In this document: positions 4,325 to 62,623 of the stretch, in pieces
Layout of the letters: the number at the start of each line of letters is the position of its first letter
Numbering within the stretch: position 1 is the first letter of the stretch
Source: Escherichia coli
Lineage (GTDB): Bacteria; Pseudomonadota; Gammaproteobacteria; Enterobacterales; Enterobacteriaceae
DNA length: 64,000 nucleotides
Direction: 5' to 3' (one strand)
NCBI RefSeq assembly: GCF_003991155.1
Contig: NZ_CP031293.1
Position numbers and translations under genes: made by a program
The notes under the pieces: model-generated
Told to the model about the DNA's origin: nothing
What the model saw: only the letters and a program-made list of their open reading frames with translations
Databases searched by the model: none

Positions 4325-4393
4325 AGGCTCATAATTTCTGGTGATTTTATGCCGCCAACTTTACTCGCCAGGCTCTGATTTTCCGGTGACAGG

Positions 4394-4415
4394 AAAATGA
4401 CAAAATTGTCATTTT
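4394..4415. promoter_or_regulatory. CusR box palindrome in the cusC-cusR divergent intergenic region
   Basis: Palindrome AAAATGACAAAATTGTCATTTT between the divergent cusC and cusR starts. Confidence 0.75.
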
Positions 4416-4480
4416 GCCAATAAGCGATTGCCATCTGATCCCGCTACTCTAGAATTGCCCGGGCAACATGCGGAGGAAAT

Positions 4481-5164
4481 ATGAAACTGTTGATTGTCGA
4501 AGATGAAAAGAAAACCGGAGAATACTTGACCAAAGGGTTAACCGAAGCCGGTTTTGTGGTCGATTTGGCCGACAACGGGCTGAATGGCTACCATCTGGCG
4601 ATGACCGGTGATTATGATCTGATAATCCTCGATATTATGCTGCCGGACGTGAACGGCTGGGATATCGTGCGCATGTTGCGTTCCGCCAATAAGGGGATGC
4701 CGATTCTGTTGCTTACCGCGCTTGGCACCATTGAACATCGCGTCAAGGGGCTGGAGTTGGGGGCCGATGACTATCTGGTGAAGCCGTTCGCTTTTGCTGA
4801 ACTGCTGGCGCGGGTGCGCACTCTCCTGCGGCGCGGGGCGGCGGTGATTATCGAAAGTCAGTTTCAGGTTGCCGATCTGATGGTCGATCTCGTCAGCCGC
4901 AAAGTCACCCGCAGCGGCACGCGCATCACTCTGACCAGTAAAGAATTTACTCTGCTGGAGTTTTTCCTTCGCCATCAGGGCGAAGTGCTGCCCCGCTCGC
5001 TTATCGCCTCGCAGGTATGGGACATGAATTTCGACAGCGACACTAACGCCATTGATGTGGCGGTGAAGCGGCTACGCGGCAAAATCGACAACGACTTTGA
5101 GCCGAAGCTGATTCAAACCGTGCGCGGCGTGGGTTACATGCTTGAGGTACCGGATGGCCAGTAA
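4481..5164 (+). CDS. cusR: CusR OmpR-family response regulator
   Basis: 227-aa [19 protein letters not shown]...; receiver plus winged-helix domains. Confidence 0.95.
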
Positions 5165-6596: not shown

Positions 6597-6745
6597 TCCT
6601 TCAGCAAACGGCAACTTTTATAACCAGTGTAAAAATAACGTGCCGCAATAATCCTACCTATTAATGATAAAAAGCTGTCACAATTCATAAAAAACTTTAA
6701 TATACGCCACCCTAAACATAACCAGCGTTAATGTAAGGTTTTTGT

Positions 6746-8983: not shown

Positions 8984-11942
8984 CCTTAATCGCGTCATCG
9001 GATGGTCTGGTTTACTGCTGACGTCTTTATTGAGTACCAGCGCACTCGCAGACAATATCGGCACCAGCGCAGAAGAGCTGGGGCTGAGCGATTATCGCCA
9101 TTTCGTTATTTATCCCCGTCTCGACAAGGCGCTGAAGGCACAGAAAAATAACGACGAAGCAACCGCCATCCGCGAATTTGAATATATACACCAACAGGTG
9201 CCGGATAATATTCCACTAACTTTATACCTTGCGGAAGCCTATCGCCATTTTGGTCATGATGACCGGGCGCGGCTGTTGCTTGAGGATCAACTGAAACGTC
9301 ACCCAGGAGATGCCCGACTTGAGCGCAGTCTGGCGGCTATTCCAGTTGAAGTGAAAAGCGTTACGACTGTTGAAGAACTGCTGGCCCAGCAAAAAGCGTG
9401 CGATGCTGCGCCGACCCTGCGTTGTCGCAGTGAAGTTGGGCAGAATGCCCTGCGGCTGGCACAATTACCTGTCGCCAGAGCGCAACTGAACGATGCGACG
9501 TTTGCTGCATCGCCGGAAGGAAAAACGCTGCGAACCGATCTGCTGCAACGGGCAATCTACCTGAAACAATGGTCCCAGGCAGATACGCTATACAATGAAG
9601 CACGCCAGCAGAACACATTAAGCGCGGCAGAACGCCGCCAGTGGTTTGATGTGCTTCTTGCCGGGCAGCTGGACGATCGGATCCTGGCGCTGCAATCACA
9701 GGGGATCTTCACCGATCCTCAGTCATATATTACTTACGCGACCGCGCTGGCTTATCGTGGCGAAAAAGCACGCCTCCAGCGTTATCTCATTGAAAATAAG
9801 CCGCTGTTTACCACGGACGCACAAGAGAAAAGTTGGCTCTATCTGATATCTAAATACAGCGCCAACCCCGTTCAGGCGTTGGCGAATTATACGGTACAGT
9901 TTGCCGATAACCGCCAGTATGTTGTTGGCGCGACGCTACCGGTGCTGTTAAAAGAAGGTCAGTACGACGCAGCGCAAAAACTGCTCGCCACCCTCCCCGC
10001 CAATGAAATGCTTGAGGAGCGTTATACCGTTAGCGTAGCGACCCATAACAAGGCTGAAGCTCTGCGTCTGGCACGATTGCTGTATCAGCAAGAACCGGCA
10101 AATCTTACCCGCCTGGATCAACTGACCTGGCAACTGATGCAGAACGAGCAGTCACGCGAAGCTGCCGATTTATTGCTGCAACGCTATCCTTTCCAGGGCG
10201 ATGCGCGTGTCAGCCAGACGTTAATGGCGCGACTGGCGTCTCTGCTGGAAAGTCATCCTTACCTGGCAACGCCGGCGAAGGTGGCGATTTTATCGAAACC
10301 CTTACCGCTGGCGGAGCAACGTCAGTGGCAAAGTCAGTTGCCGGGTATTGCAGATAATTGCCCGGCTATAGTTCGCTTGCTGGGCGATATGTCGCCTTCC
10401 TACGATGCCGCCGCCTGGAACCGTCTGGCAAAGTGTTATCGGGACACGCTACCCGGTGTGGCGTTGTATGCATGGCTTCAGGCCGAACAACGACAACCGA
10501 ACGCCTGGCAACATCGTGCGGTAGCCTATCAGGCGTATCAGGTTGAGGACTACGCCACCGCACTGGCGGCCTGGCAGAAAATCAGTCTTCACGACATGAG
10601 CAATGAGGATCTGCTTGCTGCTGCCAATACCGCCCAGGCGGCAGGAAATGGTGCGGCTCGCGATCGCTGGCTTCAGCAGGCAGAACAACGTGGGCTGGGA
10701 AACAATGCCCTCTACTGGTGGCTGCATGCGCAACGTTACATTCCTGGTCAGCCGGAACTCGCACTGAACGATCTCACGCGCTCAATCAATATTGCGCCTT
10801 CTGCCAACGCTTACGTTGCGCGGGCGACAATTTATCGCCAACGTCATAATGTCCCGGCGGCGGTGAGTGATTTGCGCGCCGCGCTGGAACTGGAACCGAA
10901 TAATAGCAACACCCAGGCAGCGCTCGGTTACGCCTTGTGGGATAGCGGTGATATCGCACAGTCGCGGGAAATGCTCGAACAGGCGCATAAAGGGCTACCG
11001 GACGATCCGGCACTTATCCGACAACTGGCCTACGTGAACCAGCGTCTGGATGACATGCCTGCGACGCAGCACTACGCCCGGCTGGTGATTGATGACATTG
11101 ATAATCAGGCGCTGATAACCCCACTGACCCCAGAGCAAAATCAGCAACGCTTCAATTTCCGCCGTCTGCATGAGGAGGTCGGTCGCCGCTGGACGTTCAG
11201 TTTCGATTCTTCTATCGGCTTGCGTTCCGGCGCAATGAGTACCGCTAACAATAATGTCGGCGGCGCAGCGCCAGGGAAAAGCTATCGTAGCTACGGGCAA
11301 CTGGAAGCCGAGTACCGCATCGGACGCAATATGCTGCTGGAAGGCGACCTGCTCTCGGTTTACAGCCGTGTATTTGCCGATACCGGTGAAAACGGGGTGA
11401 TGATGCCGGTGAAAAATCCGATGTCCGGCACCGGTCTGCGCTGGAAGCCGCTGCGCGATCAGATCTTTTTCCTCGCCGTCGAACAGCAGTTGCCGCTGAA
11501 CGGCCAAAATGGCGCATCCGATACCATGCTGCGCGCCAGCGCCTCATTCTTTAATGGCGGCAAATACAGCGACGAATGGCACCCGAACGGTTCAGGCTGG
11601 TTTGCCCAAAACCTGTACCTCGATGCGGCGCAATATGTCCGCCAGGATATTCAGGCGTGGACGGCAGATTATCGCGTCAGCTGGCATCAGAAGGTGGCTA
11701 ACGGACAGACTATTGAGCCTTACGCTCACGTTCAGGACAACGGCTATCGTGATAAAGGCACTCAGGGCGCGCAGCTTGGCGGAGTCGGGGTCCGCTGGAA
11801 TATCTGGACCGGCGAGACGCACTACGACGCCTGGCCGCACAAAGTCAGTCTCGGCGTCGAGTATCAACATACCTTTAAGGCGATTAATCAACGTAACGGA
11901 GAGCGCAACAACGCGTTTCTCACCATTGGAGTGCACTGGTAA
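8970..11942 (+). CDS. nfrA: NfrA outer-membrane protein (phage N4 receptor)
   Basis: Start MKENNLNRVIGWSGLLLTSLLSTSALA (signal peptide); ~990 aa; TPR-like N-terminus. Confidence 0.9.
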   Translation: MKENNLNRVIGWSGLLLTSLLSTSALADNIGTSAEELGLSDYRHFVIYPRLDKALKAQKNNDEATAIREFEYIHQQVPDNIPLTLYLAEAYRHFGHDDRARLLLEDQLKRHPGDARLERSLAAIPVEVKSVTTVEELLAQQKACDAAPTLRCRSEVGQNALRLAQLPVARAQLNDATFAASPEGKTLRTDLLQRAIYLKQWSQADTLYNEARQQNTLSAAERRQWFDVLLAGQLDDRILALQSQGIFTDPQSYITYATALAYRGEKARLQRYLIENKPLFTTDAQEKSWLYLISKYSANPVQALANYTVQFADNRQYVVGATLPVLLKEGQYDAAQKLLATLPANEMLEERYTVSVATHNKAEALRLARLLYQQEPANLTRLDQLTWQLMQNEQSREAADLLLQRYPFQGDARVSQTLMARLASLLESHPYLATPAKVAILSKPLPLAEQRQWQSQLPGIADNCPAIVRLLGDMSPSYDAAAWNRLAKCYRDTLPGVALYAWLQAEQRQPNAWQHRAVAYQAYQVEDYATALAAWQKISLHDMSNEDLLAAANTAQAAGNGAARDRWLQQAEQRGLGNNALYWWLHAQRYIPGQPELALNDLTRSINIAPSANAYVARATIYRQRHNVPAAVSDLRAALELEPNNSNTQAALGYALWDSGDIAQSREMLEQAHKGLPDDPALIRQLAYVNQRLDDMPATQHYARLVIDDIDNQALITPLTPEQNQQRFNFRRLHEEVGRRWTFSFDSSIGLRSGAMSTANNNVGGAAPGKSYRSYGQLEAEYRIGRNMLLEGDLLSVYSRVFADTGENGVMMPVKNPMSGTGLRWKPLRDQIFFLAVEQQLPLNGQNGASDTMLRASASFFNGGKYSDEWHPNGSGWFAQNLYLDAAQYVRQDIQAWTADYRVSWHQKVANGQTIEPYAHVQDNGYRDKGTQGAQLGGVGVRWNIWTGETHYDAWPHKVSLGVEYQHTFKAINQRNGERNNAFLTIGVHW

Positions 11943-12833
11943 ATGCGTAAGTTCATTTTCGTATTGCTGACACTGCTTTTGGTCAGCCCTTTTTCCTTTG
12001 CGATGAAAGGTATTATCTGGCAACCACAAAACCGTGATAGTCAGGTTACCGATACCCAGTGGCAGGGGCTGATGAGTCAGTTACGTTTGCAAGGCTTCGA
12101 TACCCTGGTTTTGCAATGGACTCGTTACGGCGATGCATTCACCCAGCCAGAACAGCGCGCGTTATTGTTTAAGCGTGCCGCAGCTGCGCAACAGGCTGGC
12201 CTGAAGCTGATTGTCGGGCTGAATGCCGATCCGGAATTTTTTATGCACCAGAAACAGTCGTCTGCAGCGCTGGAAAGCTATCTTAACCGCCTGCTGGCTG
12301 CCGATCTCCAGCAAGCCAGATTATGGAGCGCCGTACCTGGCGTAACGCCGGATGGCTGGTACATCAGCGCGGAAATTGACGACCTGAACTGGCGCAGCGA
12401 AGCCGCCCGTCAGCCTTTGCTAACATGGTTAAACAACGCGCAGCGGTTGATTAGCGATGTTTCAGCAAAACCGGTTTATATCAGTAGTTTTTTCGCCGGA
12501 AACATGTCGCCCGATGGCTATCGCCAACTGCTGGAACACGTTAAAGCAACCGGCGTTAATGTCTGGGTACAGGATGGCAGCGGCGTGGATAAACTGACCG
12601 CTGAACAGCGTGAACGTTATCTACAGGCCAGCGCCGATTGCCAAAGCTCCGCCCCAGCAAGCGGCATTGTTTATGAACTGTTTGTCGCCGGCAAAGGCAA
12701 AACCTTTACAGCGAAACCGAAACCGGACGCAGAAATTGCCTCGCTGTTAGCGAAACGTTCCTCTTGCGGTAAAGACACGCTCTATTTCTCTCTGCGCTAT
12801 TTGCCCGTCGCGCACGGCATTCTCGAGTATTAA
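11943..12833 (+). CDS. ybcH: YbcH family protein (DUF4434-like)
   Basis: 296-aa ORF MRKFIFVLLTLLLVSPFSFA...; ATG abuts the nfrA stop. Confidence 0.85.
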   Translation: MRKFIFVLLTLLLVSPFSFAMKGIIWQPQNRDSQVTDTQWQGLMSQLRLQGFDTLVLQWTRYGDAFTQPEQRALLFKRAAAAQQAGLKLIVGLNADPEFFMHQKQSSAALESYLNRLLAADLQQARLWSAVPGVTPDGWYISAEIDDLNWRSEAARQPLLTWLNNAQRLISDVSAKPVYISSFFAGNMSPDGYRQLLEHVKATGVNVWVQDGSGVDKLTAEQRERYLQASADCQSSAPASGIVYELFVAGKGKTFTAKPKPDAEIASLLAKRSSCGKDTLYFSLRYLPVAHGILEY

Positions 12834-13015
12834 ATCTCCTCCAGGTAAGTCGGGTACGACCTGGCTTACCTCTTTCGCTCTCGTCAGAATTCCATCAAGA
12901 TTAATTGCTAAAAAGCGTGCTAAAGAAAGAAGATCGTTATCGGCGAACGGGCCGATCACTCATGCAGGAAGCATAGATCCTTTGAGCGGAGTTTCTGATA
13001 TCTGAGGAGTGCGAA

Positions 13016-13777
13016 ATGCAATTGAGCAGCAGTGAACCTTGCGTGGTGATCCTGACCGAAAAAGAGGTAGAGGTAAGCGTCAATAACCATGCTACGTTTA
13101 CCCTTCCGAAAAACTACCTGGCCGCCTTCGCGTGCAACAATAACGTCATTGAACTCTCAACGTTAAATCACGTATTAATCACCCACATCAACCGTAACAT
13201 CATCAACGATTATCTGTTGTTTTTAAATAAGAACTTAACCTGTATAAAGCCCTGGTCGCGGCTGGCAACCCCGGTTATCGCTTGTCATAGCCGTACACCG
13301 GAAGTGTTCCGGCTAGCCGCCAACCACAGCAAGCAGCAACCCAGCAAACCCTGCGAAGCGGAGTTGACGCGCGCATTGCTTTTTACCGTATTGTCTAACT
13401 TTCTTGAGCAATCGCGGTTTATTGCCCTACTGATGTATATCTTACGCAGCAGCGTCCGCGACAGCGTCTGCCGCATTATTCAAAGCGATATTCAGCATTA
13501 CTGGAATCTGCGAATTGTCGCCAGTTCGCTATGTTTAAGCCCCAGCCTGCTCAAAAAGAAATTAAAAAACGAAAATACCAGCTATAGCCAGATTGTCACA
13601 GAGTGTCGTATGCGTTACGCCGTACAGATGTTATTGATGGATAACAAAAATATCACTCAGGTAGCGCAATTATGTGGCTATAGCAGCACGTCGTACTTTA
13701 TCTCTGTTTTTAAGGCGTTTTACGGCCTGACACCGTTGAATTATCTCGCCAAACAGCGACAAAAAGTGATGTGGTGA
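13016..13777 (+). CDS. envY: EnvY AraC-family transcriptional regulator
   Basis: 253-aa ORF with C-terminal AraC HTH (…VAQLCGYSSTSYFISVFKAFYGLTP). Confidence 0.85.
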   Translation: MQLSSSEPCVVILTEKEVEVSVNNHATFTLPKNYLAAFACNNNVIELSTLNHVLITHINRNIINDYLLFLNKNLTCIKPWSRLATPVIACHSRTPEVFRLAANHSKQQPSKPCEAELTRALLFTVLSNFLEQSRFIALLMYILRSSVRDSVCRIIQSDIQHYWNLRIVASSLCLSPSLLKKKLKNENTSYSQIVTECRMRYAVQMLLMDNKNITQVAQLCGYSSTSYFISVFKAFYGLTPLNYLAKQRQKVMW

Positions 13778-13822
13778 AGGGCAAAGCGGAAACGGATAAG
13801 ACGGGGATAAATGAAGAAGAAA

Positions 13823-13867
13823 TGGCGCGCCCTGCAGGATTCGAACCTGCGGCCCACGACTTAGAAG
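13823..13867. repeat. attR core: 45-bp duplicate of the argU 3' end
   Basis: TGGCGCGCCCTGCAGGATTCGAACCTGCGGCCCACGACTTAGAAG matches 62547-62591; sequence diverges after 13867. Confidence 0.9.
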
Positions 13868-14289
13868 TTCCTAGAACGACATTTTAAGTCAACAACTTAC
13901 CGCGCCATCTCTGCGCTCACACGTCCCACTACCTCAAAACATGTAAAGCCTTGCAAGCCATTGTGAGGCCTTATGTGTCTCAGTTTTGTCCCTCTTTTTT
14001 GTACCAAAAAACATAGCAATTGAGGATAAACCTCATGCTATTTTCGCTTATATGCCTCTAAAGGCATGGCGCTTAAATAGATAAAAACACCACAAAAGCA
14101 TAAAAAACCACACAGTAAAACCGCAACATAAAACAATAACAGATAATTAAACCAAAAACAGATAGCGCATTGTGATAATCATTCAATACTAAACAAAATA
14201 TAAACAGTGGAGCAATATGTAATTGACTCATTAAGTTAGATATAAAAAATACATATTCAATCATTAAAACGATTGAATGGAGAACTTTT

Positions 14290-15243
14290 ATGCGGGCGAA
14301 ACTTCTGGGAATAGTCCTGACAACCCCTATTGCGATCAGCTCTTTTGCTTCTACCGAGACTATATCGTTTACTCCTGACAACATAAATGCGGGCATTAGT
14401 CTTGGAACTCTGAGCGGAAAAACAAAAGAGCGCGTTTATCTAGCTGAAGAAGGAGGCCGAAAAGTCAGTCAACTCGACTGGAAATTCAATAACGCTGCAA
14501 TTATTAAAGGTGCAATTAATTGGGATTTGATGCCCCAGATATCTATTGGGGCTGCGGGCTGGACTACTCTCGGCAGCCGAGGTGGCAATATGGTCGATCA
14601 GGACTGGATGGATTCCAGTAACCCCGGAACCTGGACAGATGAAAGTAGGCACCCTGATACACAACTCAATTATGCCAACGAATTTGATCTGAATATCAAA
14701 GGCTGGCTCCTCAACGAACCCAATTACCGCCTGGGACTCATGGCCGGATATCAGGAAAGCCGTTATAGCTTTACAGCCAGAGGTGGTTCCTATATCTACA
14801 GTTCTGAGGAGGGATTCAGAGATGATATCGGCTCCTTCCCGAATGGAGAAAGAGCAATCGGCTACAAACAACGTTTTAAAATGCCCTACATTGGCTTGAC
14901 TGGAAGTTATCGTTATGAAGATTTTGAGCTAGGTGGCACATTTAAATACAGCGGCTGGGTGGAAGCATCTGATAACGATGAGCACTATGACCCAGGAAAA
15001 AGAATCACTTATCGCAGTAAAGTCAAAGACCAAAATTACTATTCTGTTGCAGTCAATGCAGGTTATTACGTAACACCTAACGCAAAAGTTTATGTTGAAG
15101 GCGCATGGAATCGGGTTACGAATAAAAAAGGTAATACTTCACTTTATGATCACAATGATAACACTTCAGACTACAGCAAAAATGGTGCAGGCATAGAAAA
15201 CTATAACTTCATCACTACTGCTGGTCTTAAGTACACCTTTTAA
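14290..15243 (+). CDS. ompT: OmpT outer-membrane protease (omptin)
   Basis: 317-aa ORF MRAKLLGIVLTTPIAISSFASTETISFTPDNIN... Confidence 0.95.
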   Translation: MRAKLLGIVLTTPIAISSFASTETISFTPDNINAGISLGTLSGKTKERVYLAEEGGRKVSQLDWKFNNAAIIKGAINWDLMPQISIGAAGWTTLGSRGGNMVDQDWMDSSNPGTWTDESRHPDTQLNYANEFDLNIKGWLLNEPNYRLGLMAGYQESRYSFTARGGSYIYSSEEGFRDDIGSFPNGERAIGYKQRFKMPYIGLTGSYRYEDFELGGTFKYSGWVEASDNDEHYDPGKRITYRSKVKDQNYYSVAVNAGYYVTPNAKVYVEGAWNRVTNKKGNTSLYDHNDNTSDYSKNGAGIENYNFITTAGLKYTF

Positions 15244-15429
15244 CGAAGTTAACCAGATTTTCTCCCCGGTGGTATTGTATAACCCCGGGGAATTTGTTTA
15301 CAGTTACAAGTAGACAATATCCACTAATTTTGTAAGCATTTAACCTATGTCATAACGTGTAATCTCTTACCGCAACACAAGACCTCAATATATTCAAATC
15401 TTATCTTTATTCCGATATTCAGAGACACA

Positions 15430-16914
15430 ATGCGAAAAATAATTACTCATTTCAAAGTTGTTTTAACGTTACTTCTACCAGTAACCGTATCTGCCCAGCA
15501 GATACAGTGGCAATCCTGTATGGCCAGTCAATTCAACCACTGGTTTGGTGAGGAAAAACCGTCTCCTGACTTACTATGTGGTTATTTGTCTGTTCCATTA
15601 AAATATACAGACACAGGCGGAGATGCTTCTTATGAAAAAAAATCACAAGTCAAACTAGCGTTGACAAAATTGCCGGCAAAAAGCAAGCATAAAGGAAGTA
15701 TCCTGATAATAAGTGGTGGTCCCGGGTTACCAGGCATAAATCCTTATATTAACTTTGACTGGCCAGTCACAAATCTTCGTGAGTCATGGGATATTATTGG
15801 ATTTGATCCTCGAGGCGTCGGACAGTCCACTCCGACAATAAACTGCCGGCAATCAGATACAGAGACTCAGGAAAACATAACCGAAAAGCAACAAGTATTA
15901 AATAAAATTAATGCCTGTATCCATAATACCGGAGCCGAAGTCATTCGCCATATCGGCTCTAACGAGGCTGTATACGATATTGATCGTATTAGGCAAGCCT
16001 TGGGGGATAAACAACTGACAGCCGTGGCGTATTCGTATGGAACTCAAATTGCAGCCTTATATGCAGAACGTTTTCCCTACAACGTAAGATCTATCGTTCT
16101 TGATGGAGTCGTCGATATCGATGACCTGGAGGACAACTTCACATGGCAACTCAAACAGGCACAGAGTTATCAGGAAACGTTTGATCGCTTTGCATCCTGG
16201 TGTGCGCGTACAAAAAGTTGCCCGCTTTCTTCAGACAGAGATAAGGCAATAACTCAGTTCCATGAGCTATTATCAAAATTACATCACAAACCTTTATTAG
16301 ACAGTAAGGGAGAAAATATATCTTCAGATGAACTCATATCATTAACAACAGACCTTCTGCTATGGCGTTCATCATGGCCAACCCTTGCAACTGCCATACG
16401 CCAGTTCTCTCAGGGGATTGTCAGTAATGAAATTGAAACTGCGCTCAGTGCTCCGATAGCCTCAGAAGAGTCAAGCGATGCTTCGGGGGTAATCCTCTGT
16501 GTAGATCAGGGGGATGAGCAATTAACACCAGAAGAGCGAAAATCCCGAAAAGACGCTCTTGCGAATGCCTTCCCGGCTATTAACTTTGACAATGGACGTT
16601 CCGATTCACCTGATTTTTGTGAATTATGGCCAATACATAGCGACCTGAACAAAACTCGCCTGAAAAATACTGTTCTGCCCTCTGGTTTACTGTTTGTAGC
16701 ACACAAATACGACCCAACAACGCCCTGGATTAATGCCCGTAAGATGGCAGAGAAATTTTCCAGCCCGTTACTAACAATAAATGGTGATGGGCATACATTA
16801 GCTCTCACCGGAGTTAATTTATGTGTAGATAAAGCAGTTGTACATCACCTGATCACTCCACAAAAAATAGAAAATATATACTGCCCAGGAAATTCTGAAG
16901 CAGAAATACAATAA
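15430..16914 (+). CDS. Secreted alpha/beta-hydrolase, S33 (tripeptidyl aminopeptidase-like) family
   Basis: 494-aa ORF with signal peptide MRKIITHFKVVLTLLLPVTVSA; nucleophile elbow AYSYGTQ (GxSxG). Confidence 0.7.
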   Translation: MRKIITHFKVVLTLLLPVTVSAQQIQWQSCMASQFNHWFGEEKPSPDLLCGYLSVPLKYTDTGGDASYEKKSQVKLALTKLPAKSKHKGSILIISGGPGLPGINPYINFDWPVTNLRESWDIIGFDPRGVGQSTPTINCRQSDTETQENITEKQQVLNKINACIHNTGAEVIRHIGSNEAVYDIDRIRQALGDKQLTAVAYSYGTQIAALYAERFPYNVRSIVLDGVVDIDDLEDNFTWQLKQAQSYQETFDRFASWCARTKSCPLSSDRDKAITQFHELLSKLHHKPLLDSKGENISSDELISLTTDLLLWRSSWPTLATAIRQFSQGIVSNEIETALSAPIASEESSDASGVILCVDQGDEQLTPEERKSRKDALANAFPAINFDNGRSDSPDFCELWPIHSDLNKTRLKNTVLPSGLLFVAHKYDPTTPWINARKMAEKFSSPLLTINGDGHTLALTGVNLCVDKAVVHHLITPQKIENIYCPGNSEAEIQ

Positions 16915-42063: not shown

Positions 42064-42425
42064 ACATCCCGGTTTCTTCCACCATCGCACCGGAAAAGCG
42101 ACTATGAGGGTAACCCTGCGTCTGTCAGCACAGTAAAACCCGGTGTGCATCGTTTTTGATTATTCCCGCACACTCACGCAGAAGGAATTCCCCGTCGGGC
42201 TACGGTCATGGTTAATGCGGGAATACGGCGACGATACAGCGCAGCTAAAAGGGTAATAGACGGATAGACCGGTTTATTTCATTCCACAGGATTCTGAGTG
42301 TCCCCAACTTCCTCCAATAGTCTGAGCGTACACCTATATAGTTTTAATTTTCATCAATCCATTTAACTATCGTTTAATTGTTGTCACATAGGATTCTGCC
42401 GTTTTTAACAATGCAGGATAATAAG

Positions 42426-42719
42426 ATGAAAAAAATGTTGTTTTCTGCCGCTCTGGCAATGCTTATTACAGGATGTGCTCAACAGACGTTTACTGTTGGA
42501 AACAAACCGACAGCAGTAACACCAAAGGAAACCATCACCCATCACTTCTTCGTTTCGGGAATTGGACAGGAGAAAACTGTTGATGCAGCCAAAATTTGTG
42601 GCGGCGCAGAAAATGTTGTTAAAACAGAAACCCAGCAAACATTCGTAAATGGATTGCTCGGTTTTATTACTTTAGGCATTTATACTCCGCTGGAAGCGCG
42701 TGTGTATTGCTCACAATAA
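42426..42719 (+). CDS. bor: Bor lipoprotein (Iss-family serum-resistance protein)
   Basis: Start MKKMLFSAALAMLITGCAQQTFTV... with lipobox; convergent with Rz as in lambda. Confidence 0.9.
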   Translation: MKKMLFSAALAMLITGCAQQTFTVGNKPTAVTPKETITHHFFVSGIGQEKTVDAAKICGGAENVVKTETQQTFVNGLLGFITLGIYTPLEARVYCSQ

Positions 42720-44189: not shown

Positions 44190-44306
44190 AAGCTGTGTGG
44201 CGAAGTGAGCACACTTAACAGATTACGATATTTTTTGCGTACGCGTTAGTGTTTTGATAGAATTTTCAGCCACATAAAAATTCATTCTTATAATTCGGGA
44301 TATATA

Positions 44307-45170
44307 ATGGATATAACTTGTTTAGAATGTGGCAATGTTCTTGACGACCCAACTGTAGCTTGCGATAAATGCGGTGCCACGCCTCATGTTGTAGTGCTGG
44401 GCAAACAATCGTACTTTCCTATTGGTGCTGTAACAGCAAATCTTGAAAAAAATGATTCAAGAGCATTTGATTATCGATTAGGTGAAGTTTGGGATCTAAA
44501 AAATGAAGTCACATCTGAATTCATAACCAGAATTGAGAAAAAATTTAGCCGAAAAAACAAATTTCATAACTTCCTAGACTCAGATCACAACCCTTCATCC
44601 ATTCCTACGATCCTAAAAAAATACATTAATAAGAATAATGAATTCATTGATTTATCTAGAGCTATAATAGAGAAGCTTAAACATAATGCTAATAACGAAT
44701 CGAGAGTTGCCCAACTTCAGGGGGGGAGCGTTGTTTTCATCCACTATAAGTCTACCGAACCAGAGGATTTGGGGAAACTTCTAATCGTAATGGTTGATAA
44801 ACAAAGCGCCTATGACTTTGATTCGGATAAGTTGACCCCAACAAGATTAAATCCAATTAATACCGATGCCTTACGGCAGGCTGCGATGTTCGATTTAACT
44901 TTATTCGAAGCCAGTTATCCAGAAAACAAGGGTGACTCATATGTACATTTCTTGCAAGGTAAATCTAAAAGCGATTTTTTCAAAGACTCATTAGGTTGCC
45001 GACATGATTCGGACAATAAAAGAAGCATTCAGCAATTATTCAGTGCTATAGATATTTTTGCTAGTAAAAACTCACTCGGTCGTGTACTGCGTGATACTAT
45101 TGACAATGAAGTTAAATCCTTACTGGAAAAAAATCAAAAGATAAACACGGAAATAAGTCCGTTAAGATAG
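44307..45170 (+). CDS. Zn-ribbon + NdpA/YejK-like nucleoid-associated-protein-family protein, truncated by frameshift at an A7 tract
   Basis: 287-aa ORF; N-terminal CLECGN-x10-CDKCG; FSRKNKFHNF, GGSVVFIHYK and YVHFLQGKSKSDFFKDSLG align by eye to YejK; AT-rich. Confidence 0.7.
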   Translation: MDITCLECGNVLDDPTVACDKCGATPHVVVLGKQSYFPIGAVTANLEKNDSRAFDYRLGEVWDLKNEVTSEFITRIEKKFSRKNKFHNFLDSDHNPSSIPTILKKYINKNNEFIDLSRAIIEKLKHNANNESRVAQLQGGSVVFIHYKSTEPEDLGKLLIVMVDKQSAYDFDSDKLTPTRLNPINTDALRQAAMFDLTLFEASYPENKGDSYVHFLQGKSKSDFFKDSLGCRHDSDNKRSIQQLFSAIDIFASKNSLGRVLRDTIDNEVKSLLEKNQKINTEISPLR

Positions 45171-45481
45171 AGGATATTTCAAAAATAATTGACTCATGCC
45201 TGACTGATTCACACAAATGTAAGGGAACGTTTGTCGATTTTGTTAATCTTAATGGTTTCCAGATTGACCCTCAATTTGAACCAACTCCTAAAGCAGCTGA
45301 AAGCGCGCTTACAATTGAAGTGGCAGATAACGACAATAATTTTAAGTTGAAAATAATGCGTGGAGCTATTGGAGACGAAAAGTCAAATAAGCCTGTAATT
45401 CTCACTGACAACAAATGCGAAATTGTGATAAAATTGAGTCAGGCAAATTATGATGAACTCAAAAGATATAGAGACAGCTAA
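45116..45481 (+). other. Open -1 frame continuing the upstream gene (YejK-like C-terminal region)
   Basis: Frame open from 45116 to TAA at 45479-45481, 2 nt before the next ATG; needs a -1 shift at AAAAAAA 45127-45133. Confidence 0.55.
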
Positions 45482-45483
45482 TA

Positions 45484-46698
45484 ATGACAATTGCTGATGA
45501 CTTATCAAGATTAGCGCAGATTATTAACGGAGCCTCAAGCAGAGTTGAGGGCTACTACACTGTCATAAGTCTTGAAGAAAGCATTGTTATTGTAAATAGT
45601 TCTGAAATAATTAGACTGTTACAATCTATAGGTTATAAAAAGGCAACAACCTGCATCGAAAATAATGAAATTTGGCTAGATCGCCAAGCTTCATCTTGGG
45701 ATGATGCTATAATTTATGAGAATGTTGAGTCTTTTTGGTCTAGAGTAAACACCCAAAACGCTCTTCCGAAAAATTATATCATCGGAACGCCGTTAATACT
45801 CCCTACTTCTAAGAATGAAAGCATCGAAAAAATCCATATTTTCTTTATGTGGAAAGATATCCTTTCATTAATTGCTGATCATCATAACAGTGACTGCTCT
45901 GTCTTATTTTTCACCAATGAAGACAAAAGTTATACAGTCGAACTCACGCATTTTTTACAATATAGCGAGATTAATCGCTTATCGAACTCGTCTCTTAAAT
46001 ATGAAATTATAAAGGAGCTTCTCGACACAATAAAAATCAATGATTTACACAAAAGCGAGCGCAAGCTCGTTATACGCTCAGCCATAAACGAAGTATTTAA
46101 AGCAAATGGTACGTTCAATTTCTTTGACTTGCTTAACTCTACTGAACTCGTCAGGAAAAAATATGATGAACTATATGAGATTTACACAAAGAGGTTTTCT
46201 GTAAATAAAATTCTTAACGAACTCGATGAGAAAAATCTTGAGTTCACGAGTAAAATTAACGAATTCATATCATCTAATCAGACAAAAGCATTGACTATTC
46301 CCGGTGCATTAATAGCAGCTGGTGGCTTAGTGAAGGCTAATGAAACAACCGAAGCAATATTGATTATCGCAGGACTTTGGATGATAAAAAAAGTCAATTA
46401 CATTTCTATTGAGATATTCAATGAAACATTCGACAACTTACGTTCTCGAGTGGAGTCCGCTTTCGATAAGTATTTAAAGTTTGAAGAAAATAAAGAAATC
46501 AAAGATAATGCAGATAGTATTAAGAGTAGCATTACAGGTTTGATTGATAAAGCTAAAAAAAGGATGAGAACTGTTAAATATCTCGCATCAGCCATGTTTT
46601 ATGGAGGCCTTATTTACGTTGGATATAAACAGTTCCCAGTCTTTTTTGAAAAATCGGCAGTAAATCTATTTTATTTTTTATGCCATACTATAAGCTAA
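45484..46698 (+). CDS. Hypothetical membrane-anchored protein, two C-terminal TM segments
   Basis: 404-aa AT-rich ORF; hydrophobic LTIPGALIAAGGLV...ILIIAGLWMI and YLASAMFYGGLIYVGY; no Walker or nuclease motifs seen. Confidence 0.7.
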   Translation: MTIADDLSRLAQIINGASSRVEGYYTVISLEESIVIVNSSEIIRLLQSIGYKKATTCIENNEIWLDRQASSWDDAIIYENVESFWSRVNTQNALPKNYIIGTPLILPTSKNESIEKIHIFFMWKDILSLIADHHNSDCSVLFFTNEDKSYTVELTHFLQYSEINRLSNSSLKYEIIKELLDTIKINDLHKSERKLVIRSAINEVFKANGTFNFFDLLNSTELVRKKYDELYEIYTKRFSVNKILNELDEKNLEFTSKINEFISSNQTKALTIPGALIAAGGLVKANETTEAILIIAGLWMIKKVNYISIEIFNETFDNLRSRVESAFDKYLKFEENKEIKDNADSIKSSITGLIDKAKKRMRTVKYLASAMFYGGLIYVGYKQFPVFFEKSAVNLFYFLCHTIS

Positions 46699-47905: not shown

Positions 47906-48068
47906 GATTCCTCCTTGCTGCCAGTCGCAACCATTTTTTATCAACCAGGCTAGCGGTATATCCGAGCAGTGTTGGTATTTCGGATGGCTTCGGCTCAGGC
48001 TTACGCTTACGACGATTTGATACTCTGTAGATGTGTCCGTTCATGACACGAATAAGCGGTGTAGCCAT
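47898..48068 (-). CDS. ninE: NinE family protein
   Basis: Reverse-strand translation [31 protein letters not shown]... (56 aa); start overlaps ybcN stop. Confidence 0.6.
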   Translation of the reverse strand: MATPLIRVMNGHIYRVSNRRKRKPEPKPSEIPTLLGYTASLVDKKWLRLAARRNHG

Positions 48069-48523
48069 TACGCCTCCTGCTTGTCACGGAGCAGCTGGAA
48101 CTCGCAGCTCTGCGGAATAGTCAGGTGGCAGCCAATATTCACCGCCCAGGCTTCAACCTTACACAGGAAGACATACATCTCTCCGGTATCAAGATCGGAG
48201 GTATGGCGTAACGACTGGATAGTGGTGATATCACCGGTTACGACATCAACCAGGTCTTTGGTTTCATAACCGAGATATGTGTGTTTGAGAGCATCTTTTA
48301 CCCAAGCTGGAGTGGCGAACGTTTTACCCCTGTTGATGAGGTATTCACTGATTTCGCTGTACCACATGTGGCTGAGTGCATTCTGGGAAAGACTGCGTTT
48401 CTCACGCCACGGTTTAAGCACCATGCGAAAGCATTTGCCCTCCTCCAGATAAGGCTGGATCTGCCGACCGATAGCGGTGAAGTTACCGCGATGTAATTTG
48501 ATGCCATCTTGTGGGAGATTCAC
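48068..48523 (-). CDS. ybcN: YbcN-like nin-region protein (DUF1367)
   Basis: 151-aa [37 protein letters not shown]... Confidence 0.8.
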
Positions 48524-55330: not shown

Positions 55331-55434
55331 AACAACCTCCGTGGTTAATCTGAACCAAGATTAAAACTATGGTTGTTTTTAGTCAACAACCATTTTCGTT
55401 TGATGGAATAAAACCTTGGTTGTACATTTGGTCT
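55331..55434. promoter_or_regulatory. OR-like operator/promoter region between cro and cI
   Basis: Inverted repeats TTAATCTGAACCAAGATTAA (55345-55364) and ATGGTTGTT-N7-AACAACCAT (55369-55393). Confidence 0.6.
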
Positions 55435-57002: not shown

Positions 57003-57031
57003 AAACCCGGCCCCGTGCCGGGTTTTCTTTT
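57003..57031 (+). terminator. Rho-independent terminator ending the cI operon
   Basis: AAACCCGGC-CCCGT-GCCGGGTTT hairpin followed by TTCTTTTG. Confidence 0.75.
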
Positions 57032-57158
57032 GCCCTCCCCTCATCACACACACCGTTAAAAAAACCACCATAACCTCGCTTCAGTTATCGCTATGCGATT
57101 CAAGTCACAAAATAAATCCATCCTAAATACAACCAGTTATATCTAAAACAACCAATAA

Positions 57159-57202
57159 AACAACTTTTGTTGTTGACGATAAAACAACTATAGTTTTAAA
57201 TA
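57159..57202 (+). promoter_or_regulatory. Candidate OL/pL: operator palindrome plus promoter elements
   Basis: AACAAC-TTTT-GTTGTT palindrome overlapping a TTGACG -35; TAAATA 18 bp downstream; half-sites shared with OR. Confidence 0.4.
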
Positions 57203-57274: not shown

Positions 57275-57685
57275 TTGAATTTCAGCAGGCTCCGGGGAGT
57301 GCGAGGGGTGAAGCGGACGCGTGAACGTCGGTGTGACCAGCTGAAATCAACTCAACACTTCATACCTCAGTCGCTTCAACGAGGCGGCTTAGTTATGACA
57401 ACCGGCGGCCATCCACCGCCTGAATACGCGCAGAAGTCTCTATATGTTCAGCAGCCCAGCTTACGGGCAGGAGTTTTTATGGTTCATCAACATTACGGTA
57501 CGCAGACCGTTAATCGCGGTGCGGTCATGCCAGGAATGCTGGTCAAACACAAAGATGGTACCTGGACTGCATCGGCTAATTTACGCGGACGGCTTTATCT
57601 GCATCGCGGCGTCGAGCGCACTTATACCCGTGACTTGCTCGTGGAAATTTTTCTCGACGGACGCGGCAACGGCCTGAATCACTAA
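57275..57685 (+). CDS. Hypothetical early-left protein with Arg-rich motif, possible N-like antiterminator
   Basis: ORF with non-ATG start; N-terminal [12 protein letters not shown] resembles the lambda N Arg-rich motif; rest of protein unlike N. Confidence 0.35.
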
Positions 57686-57760: not shown

Positions 57761-58057
57761 ATGAACGCTTATTACATTCAGGATCGTCTTGAGGCTCAGA
57801 GCTGGGCACGTCACTACCAGCAGATCGCCCGTGAAGAGAAAGAGGCAGAACTGGCAGACGACATGGAAAAAGGCCTGCCCCAGCACCTGTTTGAATCGCT
57901 ATGCATCGATCATTTGCAACGCCACGGGGCCAGCAAAAAAGCCATTACCCGTGCGTTTGATGACGATGTTGAGTTTCAGGAGCGCATGGCAGAACACATC
58001 CGGTACATGGTTGAAACCATTGCTCACCACCAGGTTGATATTGATTCAGAGGTATAA
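57761..58057 (+). CDS. gam: Gam, host RecBCD inhibitor (short form)
   Basis: 98-aa [41 protein letters not shown]... Confidence 0.9.
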
Positions 58058-58062
58058 AACGG

Positions 58063-58848
58063 ATGAGTACAGCACTCGCAACGCTGGCTGGGAAGCTGGC
58101 TGAACGTGTCGGCATGGATTCAGTCGACCCACAGGAACTGATCACCACTCTTCGCCAGACGGCATTTAAAGGTGATGCCAGCGATGCGCAGTTCATCGCA
58201 TTGTTGATCGTCGCCAACCAGTACGGCCTTAATCCGTGGACGAAAGAAATTTACGCCTTCCCTGATAAGCAGAACGGCATCGTTCCGGTGGTGGGCGTTG
58301 ATGGCTGGTCCCGCATCATCAATGAAAACCAGCAGTTTGATGGCATGGACTTTGAGCAGGACAACGAATCCTGTACATGCCGAATTTACCGCAAGGACCG
58401 TAATCATCCGATCTGCGTTACCGAGTGGATGGATGAATGCCGCCGCGAACCATTCAAAACCCGCGAAGGCAGAGAAATCACGGGGCCGTGGCAGTCGCAT
58501 CCCAAACGGATGTTACGGCATAAAGCCATGATTCAGTGTGCCCGTCTGGCCTTCGGATTTGCTGGTATCTATGACAAGGATGAAGCCGAGCGCATTGTCG
58601 AAAATACCGCATACACTGCAGAACATCAGCCGGAACGCGACATCACTCCGGTTAACGATGAAACCATGCAGGAGATTAACACTCTGCTGATCGCCCTGGA
58701 TAAAACATGGGATGACGACTTATTGCCGCTCTGTTCCCAGATATTTCGCCGCGACATTCGCGCATCGTCAGAACTGACACAGGCCGAAGCAGTGAAAGCT
58801 CTTGGATTCCTGAAACAGAAAGCCACTGAGCAGAAGGTGGCAGCATGA
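58063..58848 (+). CDS. bet: Bet single-strand annealing recombinase
   Basis: 261-aa [35 protein letters not shown]... Confidence 0.95.
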
Positions 58849-59525
58849 CACCGGACATTATCCTGCAGCGTACCGGGATCGACGTGAGAGCTGTCGAACA
58901 GGGGGATGATGCATGGCACAAATTACGGCTCGGCGTCATCACCGCTTCAGAAGTTCACAACGTGATAGCAAAGCCCCGCTCAGGAAAGAAGTGGCCTGAC
59001 ATGAAAATGTCCTACTTCCACACCCTGCTGGCTGAGGTTTGCACCGGTGTGGCTCCGGAAGTTAATGCTAAGGCGCTGGCATGGGGAAAACAGTACGAGA
59101 ACGACGCCAGAACTCTGTTTGAATTCACTTCCGGCGTGAATGTTACTGAATCCCCGATCATCTATCGCGACGAAAGTATGCGCACCGCCTGCTCTCCCGA
59201 TGGTTTATGCAGTGACGGCAATGGCCTTGAGCTGAAATGCCCGTTTACCTCCCGGGATTTCATGAAGTTCCGGCTCGGTGGTTTCGAGGCCATAAAATCG
59301 GCTTACATGGCCCAGGTGCAGTACAGCATGTGGGTGACGCGAAAAGATGCCTGGTACTTTTCCAACTATGACCCGCGTATGAAGCGTGAAGGCCTGCATT
59401 ATGTCGTGGTTGAGCGGGATGAAAAGTACATGGCGAGTTTTGACGAGATGGTGCCGGAGTTCATCGAAAAAATGGACGAGGCACTGGCTGAAATTGGTTT
59501 TGTATTTGGGGAGCAATGGCGATGA
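58845..59525 (+). CDS. exo: Exo 5'-3' exonuclease (lambda Red alpha)
   Basis: 226-aa [43 protein letters not shown]... Confidence 0.95.
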
Positions 59526-59676
59526 CGCATCCTCACGATAATATCCGGGTAGGCGCGATCACTTTCGTCTACTCCATTACAAAGCGAGGCTGGGTATTTC
59601 CCGGCCTTTCTGTTATCAGAAATCCACTGAAAGCACAGCGGCTGGCTGAGGAGATAAATAATAAACGGGGGGCTGT

Positions 59677-60234
59677 ATGACTGATTTCACCGGAAGCAAT
59701 ACTCCTGCCGAACATCGCGACAGCTGGCGCACACCACCAGAGATTTTTGCTGCGCTTAATGCAGAGTTCGTTTTTCAACTTGATGCTGCAGCCAGCGAAA
59801 AAAACCGACTATGTCGGCTTTTTATCTCACAGGAGCAGAACACATTAACCACTTCATGGCCTGAAGCAATGGGATATGCCTCTGGTTATGTCTGGTTGAA
59901 TCCACCATACAGCAATATTTCCCCTTTTGTGAAAAAGGCAGCCACTGAAAACAAATTCAGTAGTGTGGGATGTGTAATGTTATTGCCTGCTGACACATCT
60001 GTCGGATGGTTTCATGAAGCGATACAAACCGCCAGTGAGGTCAGATTCATCACGGCAGGACGACTGGCATTTATTAACCCACTCACCGGGAAACCCGTCA
60101 GTGGAAATAATAAAGGCTCGATGCTCATTATCTGGCACCCATACCCCCGTACACACTGCCACTTTACGACCGTTGATCGTGGAGAGTTGATGGCGTTCGG
60201 CTCAAGGATTCTTGCCCGTCGGGAGGCTGCATGA
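59677..60234 (+). CDS. Phage N6-adenine DNA methyltransferase (Dam-like)
   Basis: 185-aa ORF with catalytic NPPY motif (WLNPPYSN). Confidence 0.7.
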   Translation: MTDFTGSNTPAEHRDSWRTPPEIFAALNAEFVFQLDAAASEKNRLCRLFISQEQNTLTTSWPEAMGYASGYVWLNPPYSNISPFVKKAATENKFSSVGCVMLLPADTSVGWFHEAIQTASEVRFITAGRLAFINPLTGKPVSGNNKGSMLIIWHPYPRTHCHFTTVDRGELMAFGSRILARREAA

Positions 60235-60310
60235 CAACCACGGAATGCATTTTTCTGGCAGCGGGCTTCATATTCTGTGTGCTTATGCTTGCCGACATGG
60301 GACTTGTTCA

Positions 60311-60526
60311 ATGACACCTCAGCAGGAAAACGCCCTTCGCAGCATTGCCCGTCAGGCTAATTCTGAAATCAAAAAAGCCAGACAGCAGTTTCCGGATAAA
60401 AACGTCGATGACATTTGCCGTAGCGTACTGAAGAAGCACCGCGAAACGGTAACGCTGATGGGATTCACACCGACTCATTTAAGCCTGGCGATCGGCATGT
60501 TAAACGGCGTCTTTAAGGAGCGATGA
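60311..60526 (+). CDS. Hypothetical small phage protein
   Basis: 71 aa from internal Met MTPQQENALRSIARQANSEIKKARQ... Confidence 0.4.
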   Translation: MTPQQENALRSIARQANSEIKKARQQFPDKNVDDICRSVLKKHRETVTLMGFTPTHLSLAIGMLNGVFKER

Positions 60527-60624: not shown

Positions 60625-60843
60625 ATGGCAGACATCATTGATTCAGCATCAGAAATCGAAGAATTACAGCGCAATACAGCAATAAAAATGCGTCGTCTGA
60701 ACTACCAGACTGTATCCGCAACTCATTGTTGTGAGTGTGGCGATCCGATAGATGAGCGAAGACGCCTGGCTGTTCAGGGTTGTCGGACTTGTGCAAGTTG
60801 CCAGGAGGAGATCGAACTTAAGAACAAACAATGGGGACTGTGA
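60625..60843 (+). CDS. TraR/DksA-family C4 zinc-finger protein
   Basis: 72-aa ORF with CCECGDPIDERRR...CRTCASC. Confidence 0.7.
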   Translation: MADIIDSASEIEELQRNTAIKMRRLNYQTVSATHCCECGDPIDERRRLAVQGCRTCASCQEEIELKNKQWGL

Positions 60844-60890: not shown

Positions 60891-61169
60891 ATGTTCAGAA
60901 TCATTTTTCCTAACACCTGGTACGTCGACCACCACGGCACTCCCTGCAAAATCCTGCGTTCTACCCACAACAAAGTTCACTACATCCGAAAAGGCAGAAC
61001 ATGTATCGCCAGCATGTTCCGCTTTAATCATGACTTTGAACCTGTGAATAAAGCTGATGCAGATCGGATAGCAGAAGAGATCGAAACGGCAGAACACATT
61101 AAGAAGTTACGTGACATGCGTTCAAAAAGCAGAGGTAACCATGGAATCATACAGCCTCACACTCGATGA
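60891..61169 (+). CDS. Hypothetical phage protein
   Basis: 92-aa ORF upstream of xis. Confidence 0.35.
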   Translation: MFRIIFPNTWYVDHHGTPCKILRSTHNKVHYIRKGRTCIASMFRFNHDFEPVNKADADRIAEEIETAEHIKKLRDMRSKSRGNHGIIQPHTR

Positions 61170-61512
61170 GGCCTGTCAGTTTCTTAAGATATCCAGACCA
61201 ACCGCCACCAACTGGATACGAACAGGCCGCCTACAGGCAACACGTAAAGATCCAACCAAGCCAAAATCTCCTTACCTCACAACACGGCAAGCCTGCATTG
61301 CGGCGCTTCAGTCTCCGCTGCATACTGTCCAGGTGAGCGCGGGTGATGGCATAACAGAGGAAAGAAAATGTCACTCTTCCGCAGAAATGAAATATGGTAT
61401 GCCTCGTATTCGCTCCCGGGCGGGAAACGAATTAAGGAATCTCTTGGCACAAAGGACAAGCGGCAAGCTCAGGAGTTGCACGACAAGCGAAAAGCAGAAC
61501 TCTGGCGAGTAG
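61141..61512 (+). CDS. xis: Excisionase / AlpA-like HTH protein
   Basis: [31 protein letters not shown]... immediately upstream of and overlapping int; exact 3' extent uncertain. Confidence 0.5.
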
Positions 61513-62531
61513 AAAAGCTAGGGGATTTACCTGATGTCACTTTTGAAGAGGCCTGCCTAAGATGGCTTGAGGAAAAAGCTGATAAAAAATCTCTCGATTC
61601 AGATAAAAGCCGGATTGAGTTCTGGCTTGAACATTTTGAGGGTATAAGGCTTAAAGATATCTCGGAGGCAAAGATTTACTCTGCTGTAAGCAGAATGCAT
61701 AACAGAAAGACGAAAGAAATATGGAAACAGAAAGTTCAGGCCGCCATCAGGAAAGGTAAAGAACTGCCTGTTTATGAACCAAAGCCAGTATCAACTCAGA
61801 CAAAGGCAAAGCATCTTGCCATGATAAAGGCCATTCTCCGTGCTGCAGAACGCGACTGGAAGTGGCTGGAAAAAGCGCCTGTCATCAAGATACCAGCGGT
61901 CAGAAACAAGCGAGTCAGATGGCTGGAAAAGGAGGAAGCAAAACGCCTTATTGATGAGTGCCCCGAACCACTGAAATCTGTCGTCAAGTTTGCGCTGGCA
62001 ACTGGTCTGAGAAAGTCGAACATCATAAATCTGGAATGGCAACAAATCGACATGCAGCGACGAGTTGCCTGGGTGAATCCAGAAGAGAGCAAATCAAACC
62101 GCGCCATTGGTGTGGCGCTGAACGATACCGCCTGTAAAGTGTTGCGTGATCAAATAGGCAAGCATCGCAAATGGGTGTTTGTACATACCAAGGCGGCTAA
62201 GCGAGCAGATGGAACATCAACGCCTGCGGTCAGGAAGATGCGCATCGACAGCAAGACATCATGGCTATCAGCTTGTCGTCGTGCAGGAATTGAAGATTTC
62301 CGTTTCCATGACCTCAGACACACCTGGGCAAGCTGGCTGATTCAGTCAGGCGTCCCATTATCAGTGCTTCAGGAAATGGGCGGATGGGAGTCCATAGAAA
62401 TGGTTCGTAGGTATGCTCACCTTGCGCCTAATCATTTGACAGAGCATGCGAGGAAAATAGACGACATTTTTGGTGATAATGTCCCAAATATGTCCCACTC
62501 TGGAATTATGGAGGATATAAAGAAGGCGTAA
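61368..62531 (+). CDS. intD: Tyrosine integrase (DLP12 IntD-like, argU-specific)
   Basis: 387-aa [36 protein letters not shown]...; C-terminal [10 protein letters not shown]...RYAH catalytic motifs; next to tRNA-Arg. Confidence 0.9.
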
Positions 62532-62546: not shown

Positions 62547-62623
62547 TGGCGCGCCCTGCAGGATTCGAACCTGCGGCCCACGACTTAGAAGGTCGTTGCT
62601 CTATCCAACTGAGCTAAGGGCGC
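62547..62623 (-). tRNA. argU: tRNA-Arg (anticodon UCU), attL site
   Basis: Reverse complement GCGCCCTTAGCTCAGTTGGATAGAGCAACGACCTTCTAAGTCGTGGGCCGCAGGTTCGAATCCTGCAGGGCGCGCCA; 3' 45 nt duplicated at 13823. Confidence 0.9.

Follow-up and report, generated by a model that had tools for sequence, protein, structure and literature searches.

An orphan phage N6-adenine methyltransferase of the PF05869 family in a lambdoid prophage of Escherichia coli, with GATC as its predicted target

Which sequence is the target of an adenine methyltransferase carried by a lambdoid prophage, and what could such an enzyme do for the phage in a host that has a Dam methylase of its own? The question is raised by a gene in a 64,000-nucleotide stretch of an Escherichia coli genome (contig NZ_CP031293.1 of assembly GCF_003991155.1; hereafter "the window"), which contains a complete-looking lambdoid prophage integrated at the tRNA-Arg(UCU) gene argU, beside fimZ. 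We refer to this gene as dam. Our analysis identifies it as the gene of an orphan phage Dam from a known family, and finds it intact, conserved and already annotated. It is thus an ordinary gene, correctly annotated as a member of a curated family, and it matters little as it stands; the specificity that can be predicted for it is of modest value. Its product is likely to be a minimal single-domain orphan phage Dam, dependent on S-adenosylmethionine (AdoMet) and directed at GATC, which would be silent in the lysogen and would methylate the phage's own replicating DNA.

Family, fold and conservation of the dam product

A reading of the sequence made before this analysis (the original prediction) had recognized here a phage-type adenine methyltransferase with an NPPY motif, and the open reading frame (ORF), the motif and the profile matches all confirm it. 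The dam product matched the Pfam family PF05869 ("Dam") with an E-value of 1.8e-56 and 190.9 bits (cutoff 28.1; profile positions 1-168 of 169), TIGR01712 of NCBIfam (equivalog "phage N-6-adenine-methyltransferase") with 168.2 bits (cutoff 97.05), and phrog_111 (PHROG 111, "DNA methyltransferase") with an E-value of 5.3e-78. It is identical to the RefSeq protein WP_032255841.1, which bears the same name as the NCBIfam model, and its top PADLOC model was "oMTase" (orphan methyltransferase; E 9e-33). In a six-frame scan of the window, the NPPY of dam was the sole (D/N/S)PP(Y/F/W/H) motif in plausible ORFs of at least 90 codons, the only second match being in a 95-codon antisense frame that overlaps the neighbouring orf60a-like gene. 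Among the neighbours of dam, the DUF1317 (52 residues), orf61-like (71 residues), TraR/DksA and DUF4222 genes had no nuclease or PADLOC match. Since no cognate nuclease gene adjoins it, dam is an orphan, outside any type II restriction-modification pair.

The original prediction had also called the enzyme Dam-like. This description fits by function and by Pfam name, but not by family: the protein is of the HP1/T1/VT2 type (PF05869), and had no match to PF02086 (MethyltransfD12) at E <= 0.01, the family of E. coli Dam, T4 Dam and DpnM. In contrast to the window protein, these alpha-class enzymes have 240-280 residues and a dedicated target-recognition domain, and their structural alignment to the dam model showed only 5-10% identity. 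The GATC specificity shared by phage and host Dam-like enzymes has been argued to be convergent (PMC5537653). The Pfam profile search gave no match to PF01555 either.

The AlphaFold model of the dam product (predicted local distance difference test, pLDDT, 94.9; predicted template modelling score, pTM, 0.91) is the bare catalytic domain of a class I N6-adenine methyltransferase and lacks a separate target-recognition domain. Strand beta1 comprises residues 33-36 and includes D36, the acidic residue that presumably binds AdoMet. Between D36 and N75, the first residue of NPPY, there are only 38 residues, which form a short loop and a helix in the model, so that no target-recognition domain is inserted there. 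No relative of the dam product turned up when the PDB was searched by sequence; the closest fold match of the model was the mRNA cap adenosine methyltransferase PCIF1.

PF05869 is a very large family, with 8696 cluster representatives at E <= 0.001 in a full HMMER scan. Across an alignment of 86 diverse homologues, D36, N75, P77, R129 and F132 are invariant, and P76, Y78 and A39 are at least 90% conserved. A smaller alignment of five sequences (the window protein, the Dams of phages VT2, HP1 and T1, and a Klebsiella relative) added I133, T137, G138, N144 and K146 to R129 and F132 as invariant residues of the segment 127-147; the window protein and the characterised phage Dams have 35 invariant positions in common. 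Compared with relatives of 76-79% identity by the Nei-Gojobori method, dam has a proportion of nonsynonymous differences (pN) of 0.13-0.15, with synonymous sites saturated; because the synonymous rate (dS) is saturated, only pN and its synonymous counterpart pS are usable. The low pN against saturated synonymous sites indicates that dam is under purifying selection.

These data bear on whether dam encodes an active DNA methylase at all. Its place at argU, the attachment site of the cryptic prophage DLP12 in E. coli K-12, could suggest an inactive remnant, and the structural match to PCIF1 could suggest a methylase of RNA rather than DNA. We regard this alternative as highly improbable, given that all family-invariant residues are intact, that purifying selection is strong, and that what has been cloned from the PF05869 family are Dam methylases of DNA. 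Furthermore, a copy 99.5% identical to dam, in unchanged gene order, is present in the isolated, plaque-forming phage PhiR30_1. Among the 5426 complete E. coli genomes searched, 311 (~6%) contain identical dam DNA, always in the chromosome.

The predicted target sequence

The original prediction held the target site to be unknown. This is correct for the exact protein in the window; comparison within the family, on the other hand, predicts GATC. We consider it quite likely that the window dam methylates this sequence, because its product sits within a sequence space bracketed by three enzymes reported to be GATC-specific. These three, the Dams of VT2-Sakai, T1 and HP1, all match PF05869 and, with pairwise identities of only 33-37%, lie further from one another than from the window protein.

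M.EcoT1Dam (phage T1 gene 20) is 46% identical to the window protein, with the same catalytic core, but it has 237 residues, including an N-terminal extension of ~45 residues and a 14-residue insert, and belongs to a virulent siphovirus. M.HinHP1Dam (orf13 of Haemophilus phage HP1) is 39.5-40% identical and, like the window protein, a single domain (173 residues); its gene, however, belongs to a temperate, P2-like Haemophilus myovirus, in which it closes the early operon and is followed by a terminator. Both enzymes are reportedly specific for GATC, the first in work of Auer and Schweiger from 1984 and of Schneider-Scherzer from 1990, the second in work of Piekarowicz and Bujnicki from 1999. 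The most similar of the three is M.EcoVT2Dam, of VT2-Sakai and other 933W-type Shiga toxin 2 (Stx2) phages, which is 47-49% identical over nearly the full length (175 versus 185 residues), shares NPPYSN, LDxAAS and the residues of the conserved hairpin, and is likewise an orphan in an E. coli lambdoid phage. It differs in location: its gene immediately follows NinB, within the nin region of the rightward early operon, whereas the window dam is in the leftward block, after exo. The target of M.EcoVT2Dam has been stated to be GATC (PMC6602927, citing Radlinska and Bujnicki 2001), and the phage Dam genes of VT-2 and HP1 have been counted as Dam-like (PMC7556043, citing Piekarowicz and Bujnicki 1999 for HP1).

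In the mechanism that we propose, the class I Rossmann-like core would hold AdoMet by means of the LDAAA element with D36, and the target adenine, most likely within GATC, would flip into the pocket formed by NPPY (residues 75-78) and be methylated at N6. Given the conservation described above, the segment 127-147 is a candidate miniature DNA-reading element, and it may be what reads GATC. An enzyme of 175-185 residues would here have to read this sequence with no recognition domain; the family has no solved structure.

Several points weigh against the GATC assignment. Our literature search found no experiments on the window dam or on relatives above ~50% identity, and an identity of at least 80% is usually demanded before a motif is transferred from one enzyme to another. 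Finally, a protein with no recognisable recognition domain could equally well be of relaxed specificity. Indeed, one alternative is that dam encodes a relaxed-specificity or non-GATC adenine methylase that coats phage DNA with N6-methyladenine and so gives broad protection against restriction, as M.EcoGII, Hia5 and p25 of Serratia phage OS31. Such promiscuous adenine methylases of phages and prophages do exist, M.EcoGII at least being silent in the lysogen; the window protein has no separate target-recognition domain, and it shares no more than 39-49% identity with the characterised GATC enzymes. However, every promiscuous enzyme that could be placed belongs to another family, either beta-class PF01555 (PMC5778455) or alpha-class (PMC3299994), and for this reason we mark the alternative down. 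Moreover, the three characterised PF05869 enzymes that bracket the window protein are reported to be GATC-specific, and the candidate recognition residues are invariant between it and these phage Dams. Overall, relaxed or non-GATC specificity appears decidedly unlikely.

We had considered Hia5, EcoGII and the pair OS31 p25 / phiP27 L24 as possible PF05869 members, and rejected them, as Hia5 is an alpha-class enzyme and the others are beta-class PF01555; phiP27 L24, a 67% homologue of OS31 p25, matches PF01555 with an E-value of 1e-43. M.EcoGII, L24 and p25 resemble the window dam in being orphan N6-adenine methylases borne by phages or prophages. Unlike it, they have ~350 residues, a central recognition domain and no sequence specificity, and their DPPY motif comes first and FxGxG last, the reverse of the motif order in the window protein.

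The prophage (positions 18600-62531) contains 112 GATC sites, or 2.55 per kb, ~0.53-0.65 of expectation, compared with 4.68 per kb in the cus-ompT host flank (positions 1-15400). GATC is also under-represented in prophages and mobile elements of other E. coli strains (PMC4659465, PMC6602927), and its depletion here tells nothing specific about the dam enzyme.

The early-left block, expression and role of dam

The original prediction placed dam between exo and xis in the early-left operon, and both gene order and strand agree with this, the placement being by synteny (Table 1). On the + strand, a cI-like S24 repressor gene and two ORFs of no assigned function are followed by a hairpin, two 17-nucleotide repeats, kil, gam, bet, exo, the orf60a-like gene (DUF1317), dam, the orf61-like gene, TraR/DksA, DUF4222, xis, int and the tRNA-Arg gene. 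ATGA overlaps join bet to exo, exo to orf60a and orf60a to dam, the ATG of dam sharing its ATGA with the stop codon of the 52-codon gene, which makes dam the fourth gene in a coupled string. The repeats match the operator region between cro and cI (55361-55404) and are ~280 bp upstream of kil, and their 24-bp spacing is that of the lambda OL operators; we regard them as probable OL operators, with the leftward promoter pL putatively assigned to the same region.

Table 1. Coordinates of dam, its sequence elements and the features discussed with it (window positions)
Feature	Position	Strand	Remarks
dam, 185-residue orphan phage N6-adenine DNA methyltransferase	59677..60234	+	PF05869 / TIGR01712; ATG start
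Shine-Dalgarno-like GGGGGG	59667..59672	+	4 nt 5' of the dam ATG; read from the sequence
LDAAAS codons, residues 35-40	59779..59796	+	motif I-like element on strand beta1; alignment and model
NPPY codons, residues 75-78	59899..59910	+	catalytic motif IV of amino-methyltransferases; sequence and family alignment
Codons of residues 127-147 (AGRLAFINPLTGKPVSGNNKG)	60055..60117	+	conserved beta-hairpin or loop; candidate mini recognition element; alignment
Strong terminator-like hairpin	57003..57025	+	after the cI-like gene and two ORFs; parts the immunity transcript from the early-left block
Putative OL operators / pL region	57155..57195	+	two direct 17-nt copies with 24-bp spacing; complementary to 55361-55404
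kil-like gene	57479..57685	+	first recognisable gene of the leftward early block; phrog_294
gam	57761..58057	+	host-nuclease inhibitor
bet	58063..58848	+	RecT-family single-strand annealing protein
exo	58845..59525	+	lambda exonuclease / YqaJ; overlaps the preceding bet and the following orf60a as ATGA
orf60a-like DUF1317 gene, 52 residues	59522..59680	+	stop overlaps dam start (ATGA)
orf61-like gene, 71 residues	60311..60526	+	phrog_303; downstream of dam
TraR/DksA-type zinc-finger gene	60625..60843	+	
DUF4222 gene	start 60891	+	
xis, excisionase, 133 residues	61111..61512	+	HTH_17; phrog_2907 over 2-117 of 117
intD-type integrase gene	61368..62531	+	
argU, tRNA-Arg(UCU)	62547..62623	-	attachment-site tRNA
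ybcY-like gene, 222 residues	17453..18121	+	generic class I AdoMet methyltransferase; Methyltransf_12/23/25/11

From the place of dam in the leftward early block, behind repressor-type operators, we infer that the gene would be silent in the lysogen, and made only upon induction or infection. Orphan methylases carried by other prophages stay silent in their lysogens (PMC4659465, PMC5778455), and M.EcoGII is presumed to be switched on at prophage excision (PMC5778455). One of these, M.EcoMIV, the prophage methylase of strain EC958 that is silent in the lysogen, was considered as the window dam and rejected, since it belongs to PF02086. Once expressed, the phage Dam would complete the GATC methylation of phage DNA that replicates too fast for the host Dam, and progeny genomes would exit fully methylated, safe from methylation-sensitive GATC cutters whatever the level of host Dam. 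Only about half of the GATC sites of lambda DNA are methylated by the host Dam before packaging (PMC3299994), and endogenous Dam is limiting for high-copy DNA (bioRxiv 2020.06.22.160242). Self-methylation of the replicating phage DNA is the best-supported role.

Against this account of expression and role stand the following points. A GATC enzyme seems redundant in a dam+ E. coli host, and its selective benefit is argued only. A hexamer scan of the + strand between 57150 and 57200 found no pL promoter scoring at least 9 of 12; the best hexamers by eye (TTGTTG-16-TATAGT) score 8 of 12, below the scan threshold. There was no N-family match for an N-type antiterminator, and the 89-residue ORF after cI is acidic and not arginine-rich. 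With neither an N gene nor a consensus pL found, the timing of dam expression rests on synteny and the operator-like repeats.

A further alternative is a role in the lysogen itself, where dam would regulate host or prophage genes epigenetically, for instance in the stability of lysogeny or in virulence. The original prediction had named the modulation of host gene expression as one possible effect of phage orphan methyltransferases, and Dam methylation does control E. coli genes such as pap and agn43 (PMC4659465, PMC6602927). However, dam belongs to the leftward early block and is preceded by operator-like repeats and a terminator, other studied prophage methylases are untranscribed in lysogens, and, if GATC is the target, the host Dam already saturates it, methylating 99.9% of sites (PMC6602927). 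A regulatory role in the lysogen is therefore very unlikely. The same considerations affect the comparison of lysogen and cured-strain methylomes, in which the original prediction would have taken the lack of a lysogen-specific motif as a refutation. Because host Dam saturates GATC and dam is probably repressed in the lysogen, this comparison would be uninformative: it is expected to be null even with a fully active enzyme, and a null result would not be a valid refutation.

GATC methylation by Dam enzymes, either of the host or of phage P1, has been shown experimentally to trigger retron-type abortive infection by retron Sen2 (bioRxiv 2020.06.22.160242). If the dam enzyme targets GATC, its carriage could thus be costly in some hosts.

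The position of dam suggests another role, which is compatible with GATC specificity and would be added to self-methylation: assistance to the lambda Red genes. A burst of GATC methylation would remove the hemimethylated sites that MutH needs, blunting mismatch repair locally or briefly, so that Bet/Exo recombination with diverged phage or prophage sequences would no longer be aborted. In a stronger form, dam would not be mainly anti-restriction; it would drive the mosaicism of lambdoid phages, as the natural counterpart of the Beta + Dam "TM-MAGE" plasmid. If true, the link would give lambdoid phages a reason to retain an apparently superfluous Dam in a dam+ host, and would bear on the origin of mosaic phage genomes. 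Through the ATGA overlaps, dam is chained translationally to bet and exo, and the paralogous Dam of Stx phages directly follows NinB/Orf, another recombination mediator, which under the stronger form would not be accidental. Engineered co-expression of Dam and lambda Beta transiently disables mismatch repair, with allelic replacement near that of mismatch-repair-deficient strains (PMC4770203).

The gene order of relatives is relevant here, as different genera share a place just downstream of diverse recombinase/exonuclease modules. In prophages of Enterobacter and Klebsiella, a dam 74-79% identical to that of the window comes after RecT or ERF and an exonuclease, and before TraR, DUF4222, xis and int; an Enterobacter relative carries Phage_N_antitermin upstream. 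We further inspected 80 IMG/VR loci, retrieved with the five-sequence alignment, which are close relatives only (73-99% identity) and not an independent sample. A recombinase or exonuclease is encoded within 3 kb upstream on the same strand in 52 of the 72 loci with enough upstream sequence, and TraR, DUF4222 or Int downstream in 73 of the 80. Since these loci are non-independent, the counts cannot separate a functional link to recombination from a general slot for accessory genes. The interval from exo to xis is such a slot, in which adjacency may be incidental; the T1 dam lies away from the T1 recE/erf genes; and in the remaining 20 of the 72 loci no recombinase was detected upstream with a limited query set. 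The support for a link to recombination comes from adjacency only. We consider a contribution of dam to Red recombination unlikely, and put its stronger form at the same level. Self-methylation of replicating phage DNA remains our preferred reading.

Other observations in the prophage and its relatives

Several temperate phages isolated in E. coli are mosaic relatives of the prophage (coverage 60-72%, identity 97-98%). In the record of phage PhiR30_1, the small genes flanking dam are noted as corresponding to lambda orf60a and orf61. Between dam and the orf61-like gene of the window there is an unannotated hydrophobic ORF of 27 codons (MTTTECIFLAAGFIFCVLMLADMGLVQ; 60231-60314, +). Its ATG overlaps the dam stop codon and its own stop overlaps the orf61-like ATG, both as ATGA, so that it would lengthen the coupled chain to bet-exo-orf60a-dam-X-orf61. 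Alternatively, the orf61-like gene may begin earlier, at the ATG at 60245, where the PHROG 303 alignment begins. Further downstream, RefSeq marks only a 66-bp "incomplete" helix-turn-helix pseudogene at the place of xis (61111-61512). The xis gene is probably intact and under-annotated; its 3' end overlaps the start of int at 61368.

Some relatives of dam are fused to a second methylase. In certain Klebsiella, Enterobacter and metagenomic relatives, a 637-residue protein consists of an N-terminal C5-cytosine methyltransferase (PF00145) and a C-terminal Dam (PF05869). The Dam part of this Dcm-type::Dam fusion is ~75% identical to the window protein, and the early-left slot is kept. An example is found at positions 3690-5603 of locus L009 (a Klebsiella pneumoniae prophage), and others in loci L072, L075, L076, L079-L081, L084, L086, L089, L090 and L092. 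A C5 methylase directly abuts dam in 11 of the 80 IMG/VR loci.

In the window, the original prediction counted dam as a second methyltransferase of the element, beside a ybcY-like enzyme. A ybcY-like AdoMet methyltransferase gene is indeed present, but a motif scan found no DNA amino-methyltransferase motif in its product; it is not a second DNA methylase, which leaves dam as the sole enzyme of this kind that can be recognised in the window. The ybcY-like gene adjoins a gene for a secreted-looking alpha/beta hydrolase of 494 residues (15430-16914, +), on the tail-fibre side of the prophage and next to ompT, and the two look like cargo unrelated to DNA methylation.

The nin region of the prophage carries ybcN-ninE-ybcO-rusA and no methylase; ybcN (48068-48523, -), annotated as a DNA base-flipping protein, occupies the place of NinB-then-Dam in the Stx phages. 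A Lom-family gene is found after J, and iss, for the serum-survival lipoprotein, after the lysis genes (42425-42718, +). Finally, between the Q antiterminator and the holin genes, a gene pair (44306-46698, +) runs opposite to the late operon and encodes a 391-residue "nucleoid-associated protein" and a 404-residue hypothetical protein; its coordinates were converted from the annotation of MRY15-117, which is 100% identical over window positions 40000-64000. The record of another strain names a "nucleoid-associated anti-phage protein" and an "anti-phage protein" in the matched region, probably this same pair; it is probably defence cargo.

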